From the sequence record PV845598.1: 44,255 bases of DNA. One strand, written 5' to 3'. This DNA comes from Escherichia phage vB_EcoS_GZMU_E2010. A program made the translations under genes and the position numbers. Shown piece by piece: positions 22,478-24,553 of this stretch; position 1 is the first letter of the stretch; each line of letters begins with the position of its first letter. The notes under the pieces were generated by a model. It did not search any database. It was not told the origin of the DNA and was given only the letters and a program-made list of their open reading frames with translations.

Positions 22478-22506
22478 TTGCACACCCCAATATAATAGGG
22501 TACTAT
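22478..22506 (+). promoter_or_regulatory. sigma70-like early promoter (class II) of the accessory island
   Basis: TTGCAC, 17-bp spacer accccaatataataggg, TACTAT; inverted repeat TAATAG-ggta-CTATTC. Confidence 0.5.
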
Positions 22507-22536
22507 TCACTTACACCAACAATGAAGGGGTTTAAA

Positions 22537-22728
22537 ATGTCAAGTTTACCAGTTTCCTTAATTCTGTTTGCACTGCTCGCCTATTTCGCACCTTTCCTGG
22601 TTGCGTATTTCCGCGGCCATAAAGCGAAGTTGGCAATATTCATGGCTAACCTGTTTCTTGGCTGGGCTCTGCTGCCGTGGGTCTTTATTTTAATCTGGGC
22701 TTGCAACTCGAATGTTAACGAGAAGTAA
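22537..22728 (+). CDS. small membrane protein resembling superinfection-immunity (Imm-type) proteins
   Basis: ORF 22522-22728; ATG 22537 has an SD. Two TM segments with ...RGHKAKLAIFMANLFLGWALLPWVFILIWA...; family recalled from memory. Confidence 0.55.
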   Translation: MSSLPVSLILFALLAYFAPFLVAYFRGHKAKLAIFMANLFLGWALLPWVFILIWACNSNVNEK

Positions 22729-22766
22729 GCTAGTATAGGACAAATCCTACACATGAGGACATAAGC

Positions 22767-23897
22767 ATGGCCCGGAAGAAAATAACCGACGAACAGTTAC
22801 AGGAAGAATTGAACGCCGGTGTGAAGAATGTAGATATAGCCCGTAAATACGGCATCTCAGACCGCGTTATTCGTATCCGTAAAGCAAAACTAGCTAAGAA
22901 AGGCGTGGGTCACGGGCGTGACGTTAGTCACCTTGTCCCGGACGGCTACAAGATTAAAGGAACGTCGTCACTTGTGGACGAGTTCGGCAACACTAAGTTG
23001 CAATGGGTTAAGACAGACACTGACGCCGAACGTCAGGTCGAGTTGATGAAAGCCGTAATCGAAGGCATGAAGTCAGAGATTACGCCAGTTGCGCCTGTTA
23101 AAGCCGCCCGCGCTAAACGCGACGATAAACTACTCAACCTTTACACTGTGTCTGATTTCCATCTCGGTATGCTGGCCTGGGCCGACGAGAGCGGCGACGA
23201 CTGGGATATGAAGATTGCGGAAGACCTGTTCTCTCGCTGGTTCGATGCTGCGTTTCAGAAAGCGCCGGATGCAGGAACGGGTGTTATTAATCTGCTAGGT
23301 GACCTTGCACACTTCGATAGCCTGGATGCGGTTACGCCAGCGAGTGGTCATGTTCTTGACGCGGACACGCGCTATCAGAAACTTGTACGCTACATGATTC
23401 GTATGGTCCGCCGTGTTATTGATATGGCGCTGGTTAAGCATAAAAATGTTCGCTTGCTTATCGTGCAAGGGAACCACGACGAAAGCGGAATGATTTGGTT
23501 GGCCGAGATGTTCGGCACACTGTACGACAACGAGCCGCGTGTGATTGTTGATACATCGCCGGATGTTTACAAGATGGTGCAGCACGGCAAAACGACATTG
23601 TTCTTTACACACGGGCATAAATGCCGGTTTGAGGTGGTCGAACCCATTATGATAGCTAAGTTCAGAAAAGCATTTGGCGAAAGCGAGTACAGTTATGCAC
23701 ATGTTGGGCATCTCCACCACCAAAAGATTGTAGAAAGTAGGAATATGGTAGTGGAGCAGCATCGCACTCTCGCGGCTAAAGATGCCTACGCCTCCCGCGG
23801 CGGATGGATGTCAGGCCGTAGTGCAAATGTAATTACTTATAGCGCCGAATATGGCGAGGTCGCACGTTTAACTATTTCACCGGAGATGCTGGGATGA
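22767..23897 (+). CDS. HTH domain fused to a calcineurin-like metallophosphoesterase
   Basis: 376 aa; N-terminal HTH-like segment; motifs SDFHLG, LGDLAHFD, QGNHDE, THGH, GHLHH; GAGGA SD. Confidence 0.75.
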   Translation: MARKKITDEQLQEELNAGVKNVDIARKYGISDRVIRIRKAKLAKKGVGHGRDVSHLVPDGYKIKGTSSLVDEFGNTKLQWVKTDTDAERQVELMKAVIEGMKSEITPVAPVKAARAKRDDKLLNLYTVSDFHLGMLAWADESGDDWDMKIAEDLFSRWFDAAFQKAPDAGTGVINLLGDLAHFDSLDAVTPASGHVLDADTRYQKLVRYMIRMVRRVIDMALVKHKNVRLLIVQGNHDESGMIWLAEMFGTLYDNEPRVIVDTSPDVYKMVQHGKTTLFFTHGHKCRFEVVEPIMIAKFRKAFGESEYSYAHVGHLHHQKIVESRNMVVEQHRTLAAKDAYASRGGWMSGRSANVITYSAEYGEVARLTISPEMLG

Positions 23898-24127
23898 TTA
23901 AAGCCTTGTGGATTTTCGTCATAATGCCGTTTGTGATTTTACTGGTTTTGTCTGCCGCGGTGCTAGGCATGGCGGCGGTCTTGGCCTTTATCTCTATGGA
24001 TTTGTCCGTGTTCTCGGGCCTGTACGAAGCTGTTACCGCGATAACGCTGACCGAGATGCGCCTTTTATATGTAGGTGCTGTTGCTATTTCGGCAGTTATC
24101 GTTCTGATAGAGGGGAACTATTTATGA
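23894..24127 (+). CDS. small membrane protein (77 aa)
   Basis: Strongly hydrophobic; ATGA overlaps at both ends. Confidence 0.55.
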   Translation: MIKALWIFVIMPFVILLVLSAAVLGMAAVLAFISMDLSVFSGLYEAVTAITLTEMRLLYVGAVAISAVIVLIEGNYL

Positions 24128-24354
24128 CTTCAAAATACAACCGAACAATGACAAACATTCACGGCAGCACTATGACAGTAGACGTTTATGATGTTCTCCG
24201 TGCTTTCGACATCCGGGACCCGGCACTACAGCACGCATTGAAGAAGCTATTGTGTATGGGCCTTCGCGGACATAAAGACACCGGAACCGACTTAGCGGAA
24301 GCAATTGAAAGTCTGGAGAAGTTACGGGAGTACCGGAGTAATATTGATGAGTGA
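24124..24354 (+). CDS. conserved phage-type hypothetical protein (76 aa)
   Basis: In-frame ATG at 24124 within ORF 23908-24354, overlapping the upstream stop. Confidence 0.5.
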   Translation: MTSKYNRTMTNIHGSTMTVDVYDVLRAFDIRDPALQHALKKLLCMGLRGHKDTGTDLAEAIESLEKLREYRSNIDE

Positions 24355-24520
24355 AAATATTATGAAAACAATATATGTAGTCCGAGTATACGACGAAAAA
24401 TGGGACGAGTGGGTTGATATTTGCGCCGTAGGTAGCAATGAAGAGGCCGTCAAAGAGATGGCAGAACGAAGTGGACGAGGTCAGTTAACTAGCTTCGACG
24501 AAATACCATTCAAAAGTTAG
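24347..24520 (+). CDS. hypothetical protein (57 aa)
   Basis: In-frame ATG 24347 within ORF 24305-24520, overlapping the upstream stop. Confidence 0.4.
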   Translation: MSENIMKTIYVVRVYDEKWDEWVDICAVGSNEEAVKEMAERSGRGQLTSFDEIPFKS

Positions 24521-24525
24521 TAAGA

Positions 24526-24553
24526 AAGGGCCCCTTTCGGGGCCTTAGTTTTA
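24526..24553. terminator. bidirectional intrinsic terminator closing the island
   Basis: AAGGGCCCC-tttc-GGGGCCTT followed by AGTTTTA. Confidence 0.6.

Follow-up and report, generated by a model that had tools for sequence, protein, structure and literature searches.

The superinfection-immunity protein Imm of phage T4 is an 83-aa membrane protein that scores 58.2 bits on its family profile, PF14373. Among phage calcineurin-like phosphoesterases, mycobacteriophage Bxb1 gp47 acts as a recombination directionality factor and a replication factor (PMC11795197), while A10ZJ24 Gp48, an early and toxic DNase, breaks host DNA and loses its activity when its motifs are mutated (PMC12287305). In phage T1, gp16 (ST16), annotated within phrog_704 as a 'DNA repair exonuclease', follows a helicase and a Dam methylase and closes the replication module, ahead of HNH and lysis genes. 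Here we describe a locus of Escherichia phage vB_EcoS_GZMU_E2010 (sequence record PV845598.1; the whole 44,255-nt stretch that we analyzed is called the window) in which a homologue of T4 Imm and a member of the T1 gp16 family occupy the first two positions of a five-gene unit inside the tail operon. Judging from sequence, structure models and analogy, we consider it somewhat better than an even bet (about 0.55) that the unit combines an Imm-type block to DNA entry with a DNA nuclease that depends on metal and works in phage DNA metabolism, the nuclease gene being set between slots whose contents can be swapped.

Five co-oriented open reading frames (ORFs) run along the plus strand from 22537 to 24520, as an earlier note on this DNA had reported from the letters alone, and the flanking tail chaperone and tail tube genes, identified by PF08748, PF23812 and PF18906, all lie on the minus strand, again as reported. 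Once starts had been refined, good Shine-Dalgarno sequences were found for genes 1, 2 and 4. The features of the locus are as follows.

21588-22369, minus strand: tail assembly chaperone G/T genes (PF08748, PF23812)
22468-22509, both strands: divergent promoter-like region with TTGCAC-N17-TACTAT, ATCACA-N17-TATAAT and one minus-oriented copy of a palindromic motif
22537-22728, plus strand: gene 1, 63 aa, T4 Imm homologue in a variable 5' cargo slot
22767-23897, plus strand: gene 2, 376 aa, predicted binuclear metallophosphoesterase fused to a helix-turn-helix (HTH) domain, phrog_704, fixed core gene
23894-24127, plus strand: gene 3, 77 aa, small predicted membrane protein, rare cargo of the 3' slot
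24124-24354, plus strand: gene 4, 76 aa, conserved small phage protein modeled as a beta-hairpin plus three helices
24347-24520, plus strand: gene 5, 57 aa, small soluble protein, optional cargo
24526-24553, both strands: predicted intrinsic terminator, GGGCCCC-TTTC-GGGGCC followed by a T-run, serving both the plus-strand unit and the minus-strand tail tube gene
24551-25723, minus strand: tail tube gene (PF18906, E 1e-37)

A megablast search with 21900-25000 matched 427 phage records, every one from a siphophage of the Kagunavirus or Jerseyvirus type (subfamily Guernseyvirinae); the nearest were Escherichia phages DUEC01, ZCEC5, Bas74 and K1G at 88-92% identity. By sequence, the window is a Kagunavirus-like siphophage of this subfamily. 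Annotated relatives show the same arrangement over this stretch: the tape measure and chaperone G/T genes, then on the opposite strand a 'superinfection immunity protein', a variously named phosphoesterase and several short ORFs, and beyond these the tail tube gene.

The earlier note took the whole unit for a moron-type accessory island. To place it among relatives, we scanned IMG/VR with the gene 2 protein, obtained 72 distinct loci and located the query proteins in them by tblastn; 46 of these loci hold the chaperone gene, and 43 of the 46 extend to the tail tube gene. In all 46, gene 2 comes immediately behind the minus-strand chaperone gene and is itself on the plus strand, with the minus-strand tail tube gene following in the 43, and it occupies the same site in K1G, DUEC01, Bas74 and a Jerseyvirus-type Salmonella phage. 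Its identity across Kagunavirus-type loci is 92-98%, and its neighbors vary. The end of gene 2 and the terminator are fixed boundaries, and the unit as a whole is delimited by a conserved intergenic region and that conserved terminator. Invariable presence of gene 2 beside variable neighbors indicates a core gene that stays in place between two slots for cargo, so the island description suits the two flanking slots, which vary like cargo, and fails for gene 2. Composition is not foreign either: the GC content of the region (47-50%) falls inside the window's own range and GC skew alone flips, as expected from the strand switch. The same note had asked whether the island might instead be a conserved core part of related genomes with a role in tail assembly; gene 2 is indeed core, and nothing points to a tail role.

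Gene 2 matches phrog_704 from end to end (E 1.6e-165) and contains all five motifs of calcineurin-like phosphoesterases (DxH, GD, GNH[DE], H and GHxH). Among 50 homologues with 32-50% identity, D130, H132, G178, D179, N236, H237, H282, G314 and H317 are invariant, and H182 and D184 of 'GDLAHFD' are almost so. The description of gene 2 as an HTH joined to a complete phosphoesterase thus withstands careful alignment, with every metal ligand kept. Its Pfam scores fall just under the gathering cut-offs (PF00149, 19.1 against 21.5 bits; PF12850, 24.4 against 27), and its membership of the superfamily is accordingly argued from motifs and fold. The AlphaFold2 model (mean predicted local distance difference test score, pLDDT, 92.6) comprises a three-helix HTH bundle at residues 8-44 (1-45), a beta-hairpin plus helix at 61-103 and the phosphoesterase sandwich at 119-376. 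Weak matches of the N-terminus to HTH domains of the GerE/FixJ/LuxR type are in keeping with the modeled helix bundle: a PDB sequence search returned a weak FixJ HTH match alone, and the family profile gave weak matches to GerE/LuxR HTH domains and to SbcD/Mre11.

Profile alignment places the catalytic domain more closely. With hhalign, the gene 2 family profile matched Mre11 of P. furiosus (1II7) at 88% probability (E 2.9e-6), with motifs I-III aligned and H182 paired with the histidine of Mre11's GDLFH, as against 1.4% for lambda phosphatase (1G5B). Class III cyclic nucleoside monophosphate phosphodiesterases (CpdA/Rv0805) were not the closest relatives by fold or profile. An earlier placement nearer to SbcD/Mre11 or class III enzymes than to lambda phosphatase is therefore borne out for Mre11 and not for class III. 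On model and profile evidence, the nearest relatives of gene 2 are the Mre11/SbcD and PolD-DP1 nucleases, and lambda phosphatase is remote. It shares with Mre11/SbcD the fold of the catalytic domain and the motif II histidine, and differs in bearing an N-terminal HTH. Bxb1 gp47 and A10ZJ24 Gp48 likewise have Mre11 and DP1 as their top fold relatives; they differ in being proteins of ~255 aa from phages of Actinobacteria, with catalytic motifs so close to the N-terminus (D10, D41) that no room is left for an HTH.

Gene 1 is an established homologue of T4 Imm on sequence grounds. It scores 49.3 bits on PF14373 (cut-off 27.9; E 4.4e-13), matches phrog_1039 'immunity to superinfection' (E 1.8e-22), aligns with T4 Imm by BLASTP at 28% identity over 54 aa (E 4e-11) and has two hydrophobic segments on the Kyte-Doolittle scale; together these establish the homology and agree with the earlier reading of a two-transmembrane, Imm-like protein. 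Both proteins are small, although gene 1 is 20 residues shorter than its T4 counterpart. It also comes from a siphophage, with another entry route, and in other strains its slot is taken by unrelated signal-peptide proteins. Over the 46 loci, the 5' slot holds Imm in 30, a 109-aa signal-peptide protein (phrog_14165) in 11 and something else in five; four of the latter again code for a signal-peptide protein, and the fifth for a small protein that has a hydrophobic segment. Slots lacking Imm usually contain a signal-peptide protein of ~107-120 aa (for example at 3609-3938 of locus L004, 1752-2114 of L042, 3596-3919 of L043 and 3166-3510 of L075). The alternation between Imm and signal-peptide proteins recalls, by analogy, the pairing of Imm (membrane) with Sp (periplasm) in T4.

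The gene 2 family extends far beyond this subfamily. Exhaustive HMMER searching yielded 4668 clusters at 50% identity, in which full-length proteins 370-420 aa long predominate, and tblastn found homologues in 2040 phage records (Escherichia 559, Klebsiella 468, Salmonella 373, Vibrio 254, Campylobacter 59, and others). The family is near-universal in T1-like phages, whose members are about 44-47% identical to gene 2. Its neighbors across phages are usually replication, recombination or lysis genes: phage tonn has a homologue in a T1-like setting, a Vibrio phage has one after an OB-fold protein, and Campylobacter phage CP30A has a shorter, HTH-less version after RusA and a DNA ligase. Where T1 gp16 ends a replication module before lysis, the Guernseyvirinae gene has moved into the tail operon, between cargo slots. 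The Kagunavirus replication module, as annotated in Bas74, comprises a helicase-primase, an exonuclease, a gp2.5-like single-stranded DNA-binding protein, a family A polymerase, endonuclease VII and a resolvase, and is transcribed in the same direction as the five-gene unit.

Names given to relatives in GenBank vary widely. Homologues of gene 2 appear as 'DNA polymerase II small subunit', 'calcineurin-like phosphoesterase', 'DNA repair exonuclease', 'phosphodiesterase' and 'HTH-type regulator/nuclease SbcD' (in records such as PQ799475, OM272052 and MN927226), and the gene 4 protein is occasionally called 'phosphodiesterase' as well. These names are echoes of fold or carry-over of annotation, and not evidence. 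The first of them is an echo of fold and not a sign of orthology, since gene 2 is 12% identical to the PolD DP1 / polymerase B-subunit proteins, the phage polymerase belongs to family A and there is no sign of a DP2-like partner. Metis, a bacterial calcineurin-like NAD+ diphosphatase, is distinct from the gene 2 protein.

We propose that the unit is the Guernseyvirinae version of a conserved, divergent transcription unit that splits the tail operon. Its 5' slot would always code for an envelope-targeted protein, here the Imm homologue; by analogy with T4 Imm, gene 1 would reside in the infected cell's inner membrane, bar the DNA of superinfecting phages from the cytoplasm and so confer superinfection immunity. 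Gene 2 would act as a Mn2+- or Mg2+-dependent DNA exo- or endonuclease brought to DNA by its N-terminal HTH, and would serve phage DNA metabolism, by processing replication or recombination intermediates or by breaking down host DNA, and not the hydrolysis of nucleotide signals. The 3' slot would carry a small membrane protein, gene 4 and gene 5 here, and in sister phages a PNKP-type HAD phosphatase with a kinase, homing endonucleases or other inserts. The analysis shows the gene structure, homologies, fold, conservation and variability of the slots, whereas the nuclease activity of gene 2, its substrate, the Imm phenotype of gene 1 and the time of expression are inferred; for the activity, the argument draws jointly on fold, the motif II histidine of Mre11 type, the N-terminal HTH, the gene neighborhoods and the status of gene 2 as a core gene.

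Several observations weigh against this proposal. Curated SbcD/Mre11 models of NCBIfam and Pfam do not match gene 2. Against Mre11-type folds 177-193 core residues align, the gene 2 model has no separate domain after motif V, and no Mre11 capping domain was aligned to it. No Rad50/SbcC-like partner is annotated in Bas74, the window's other large ORFs lying outside our family-model scan. In Dhillonvirus the homologue has lysis genes on one side and the small terminase gene on the other, a position with no pointer to replication. The gene 2 family reaches only 2.25% in hhalign against Bxb1 gp47, with motifs III-V aligned alone; the two are related at the level of the superfamily only, and since gene 2 falls outside their sequence family, the Bxb1 and A10ZJ24 precedents are analogies. 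We found no functional study of the phrog_704 family in full-text literature searches, and no siphophage Imm homologue with a demonstrated phenotype; the paper on the BASEL collection (PMC11990801) does not discuss the locus.

In the 3' slot, hydropathy analysis of gene 3 shows two to three hydrophobic segments, consistent with the polytopic membrane protein proposed before; homologues occur in seven phage records, and neither Pfam nor PHROG gave a match. Gene 4 matches phrog_2452 (E 2.5e-36) and phrog_17613 (E 2.1e-21), in both cases over the C-terminal part of the profile alone. It has homologues in 773 phage records, is 76% identical to its Jerseyvirus-type counterpart and recurs in other phages at the C-terminus of larger proteins with various N-terminal domains. 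Its model has a pLDDT of 89; a Foldseek search with the model gave nothing at E < 1, and a sequence-profile search of the PDB came back empty. From sequence and model together, gene 4 is a real, independently folded domain. Among 24 gene 4 homologues the best Pfam match is a PafC-type HTH at E 0.07. Two other identities for gene 4 were dropped. One was a remnant of the K1G ATP-binding protein, an idea that arose from the matches to the C-terminal part of 'ATPase' families in PHROG; BLASTP found no similarity, and the K1G protein belongs to phrog_139. The other was DUF3310, a label attached nearby in one GenBank record, which has no Pfam support in the 24 homologues. Gene 5 has homologues in 22 phage records, all of the Kagunavirus type, and is found alongside either type of 3' cassette.

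The alternative cassette, seen in K1G as gp21 and gp20, pairs a HAD_PNKP phosphatase (PF25109, 72 bits) with a P-loop protein resembling deoxynucleoside monophosphate kinases (phrog_139). This T4-type polynucleotide kinase (PNK)/phosphatase cassette fills the same 3' slot in sister phages, but is absent from the window, and genes 3, 4 and 5 share no similarity with it. A tblastn match of the K1G HAD phosphatase on the minus strand at 30981-31181 (27% over 67 aa of a 128-aa ORF at 30900-31286, E 0.002) is probably due to chance. Over the 46 loci, 25 contain gene 4, alone or accompanied by small partner genes, 16 contain the PNK and kinase genes, five contain neither and none contains both (Fisher p = 2e-8, uncorrected for shared ancestry of the loci). 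T1 has PNK and kinase-like genes ~35 kb from gp16, indicating that the pair is an independent mobile cassette. Some loci carry extra inserts that, on inspection of their sequences, resemble HNH-type homing endonucleases and phage antirepressors; the HNH-like inserts suggest that cassettes are exchanged through endonuclease activity. Genes 3, 4 and 5 were not found contiguously in any phage record searched.

A more ambitious version of our proposal, which we regard as speculative and rather unlikely, holds that gene 2 is a stand-alone, Rad50-free, DNA-targeted nuclease of the Mre11 type, core to T1- and K1G-like phages (for instance in host-DNA degradation or replication restart), and that the mutually exclusive 3' cassettes are alternative answers to host immunity directed at nucleotides or tRNA. 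Phage nucleotide kinases are reported to trigger one such immune system (bioRxiv 10.1101/2024.12.20.629578), and loss of the kinase could for that reason be adaptive.

The earlier note favored a moron-type exclusion or counter-defense cassette, with gene 2 as a nuclease or a nucleotide-signal phosphodiesterase. In the second case gene 2 would degrade an immune signal made of cyclic mono- or oligonucleotides, in the manner of anti-CBASS or anti-Pycsar enzymes. The layout fits this idea in part, as the unit has promoter-like sequence at one end and a terminator at the other, runs opposite to its neighbors, begins with a superinfection-exclusion homologue and has hypervariable flanking slots such as occur at anti-defense loci. 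However, gene 2 itself does not behave like cargo, given its presence at every one of the 46 loci, its high identity in Kagunavirus-type loci and its near-universal occurrence amid DNA-metabolism genes in T1-like phages. A hydrolase of small molecules would have no obvious need of a DNA-binding HTH. None of the five proteins matched PADLOC-DB 2.0 at E <= 1, an NCBIfam scan of all five gave nothing meaningful, and the composition of the region is not foreign. With nothing favoring a nucleotide-signal phosphodiesterase over a nuclease, we consider the counter-defense explanation unlikely.

In bacterial Pnkp, a phosphoesterase domain of the calcineurin type takes part in end healing. Gene 2 could by the same token be a 2',3'-cyclic phosphodiesterase or a 3'-phosphatase that, with the PNKP phosphatase and the kinase, repairs ends of tRNA or DNA cut by host nucleases, and in K1G and the 16 loci with that cassette it directly precedes the HAD_PNKP and phrog_139 kinase-like genes. 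Yet the window and 30 of the 46 loci keep gene 2 without the pair, the two are ~35 kb apart in T1, and the Bas74 annotation includes no RNA ligase. The phosphoesterase domain of Pnkp belongs to the lambda-phosphatase-like branch, whereas the fold and profile relatives of gene 2 are DNA nucleases. End healing is therefore an improbable role for gene 2.

The promoter-like region upstream is part of a larger pattern. TTGCAC-N17-TACTAT is present on the plus strand at 22478-22506, where the earlier note placed an early-type promoter, but its hexamers are the reverse complement of a repeated motif, TGAATAGTACCCTATTATAT. Allowing up to three mismatches, this motif has six copies in the window (437-456, 4066-4085, 4110-4129 and 43136-43155 on the plus strand; 22490-22509 and 31618-31637 on the minus strand) against 0.01 expected. 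The copies have conserved flanks (cgtttcgataa upstream, tggggtgtgcaag downstream) and a palindromic core, AATAG-N4-CTATT. At the five other sites the orientation of the motif agrees with that of the next genes, and at 22490-22509 it faces the minus strand, towards the chaperone gene. We had taken the cross-genus pattern TTGCA[CT]-N17-TA[CT]TAT, seen as TTGCAT-N17-TATTAT at the equivalent place in Jerseyvirus-type loci, as support for a plus-strand promoter; this was dropped when the hexamers proved to belong to the repeated palindrome. A promoter consensus scan picked ATCACA-N17-TATAAT at 22468-22496 (plus strand) instead; in an alignment, Jerseyvirus-type loci have TAATAG in place of this TATAAT. 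To our knowledge, Kagunavirus-type phages encode no RNA polymerase.

By its sequence and recurrence, TGAATAGTACCCTATTATAT is probably a phage-wide class of promoter or operator, and its six copies across the genome mean that the promoter-like element is not specific to this locus. In Kagunavirus fBC-Eco01 this motif is reported, in seven instances, as PHIRE-predicted 'phage promoters' (PMC9825357). Because the hexamers are the reverse complement of a palindromic, six-copy motif, sequence leaves the direction of the 22490-22509 element unsettled, and it may fire in both directions. Of the early-type promoter, then, the plus-strand hexamers are real, they form part of a motif facing the other way, and the sequence carries nothing that bears on 'early'. 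A Kagunavirus transcriptome classed imm as 'late' alongside polymerase and methylase genes (PMC12645636), in a 120-minute design whose gene classes are too coarse to date the five-gene unit.

That gene 2 is mainly a transcription regulator, its HTH binding AATAG-N4-CTATT at its own promoter and the five other copies and its phosphoesterase acting as a sensor or secondary activity, is the least probable explanation. In its favor, the family conserves the HTH, PHROG gives a weak match to 'late transcriptional activator' and the gene adjoins one copy of the motif. Against it, the catalytic residues are all invariant in very divergent homologues, which speaks for selection on an enzyme, homologues from Campylobacter phages do without the HTH region, nothing ties the HTH to the motif, and homologues occur in other phage families, the motif having been searched for in the window alone.

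At the other end of the unit, the bidirectional terminator noted before was confirmed. The hairpin at 24527-24546 has a terminator score on both strands, folds better than shuffled sequences (RNA z-scores -3.2 and -2.8) and is retained in 42 of 43 related IMG/VR loci and across four genomes with differing cargo.

Two RNA elements were seen on the minus strand beside the unit. In the 5' leader of the chaperone gene, 22396-22459 matches the int-alpA RNA (RF02996) at 34.1 bits, against a gathering score of 35.8 (E 1.6e-4 in a 3.5-kb scan, 0.002 over the whole window, where it is a single copy). Its counterpart in locus L012 exceeds the gathering score at 36.6 bits, and the int-alpA core signature, GCGCC...GAAAAGCGG...CCGCCUGGCGC, is found in 44 of the 46 related loci. 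The match starts ~25 nt downstream of the minus-oriented promoter-like motif and would thus stand at the head of a transcript covering the chaperone and tape measure genes of a strictly lytic phage. Further along, at 21794-21817, a strong terminator-like hairpin (nine pairs, eight of them G-C, followed by TTTTT) lies within the chaperone's frameshift-extension ORF (21588-21920), upstream of the tape measure gene, and may attenuate transcription.

The earlier note did not recognize this gene combination as a named system. That is fair, yet published K1G- and Jersey-type genomes in which the pair of Imm and phosphoesterase has been annotated number in the hundreds; the locus is an ordinary feature of a well-sampled subfamily, the window contains nothing new in kind, and what is particular to it is only its block of genes 3, 4 and 5. 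One paper took an Imm homologue as a pointer to temperate ancestry (PMC5582158). For genome screens in phage therapy, our comparison indicates that an Imm homologue is normal for these lytic phages and is not a sign of such ancestry. Gene 2 is a core gene whose family occurs in more than 2000 phage genomes, those of T1 and of many candidates for therapy among them, and appears closest to nucleases of the Mre11 type, yet no Rad50 partner is annotated in the related genome. The locus amounts to a natural experiment, in which one gene is fixed between a slot for envelope proteins and a slot for nucleic-acid or nucleotide enzymes, and this two-slot arrangement may be useful for finding exclusion and counter-defense genes in small siphophages.

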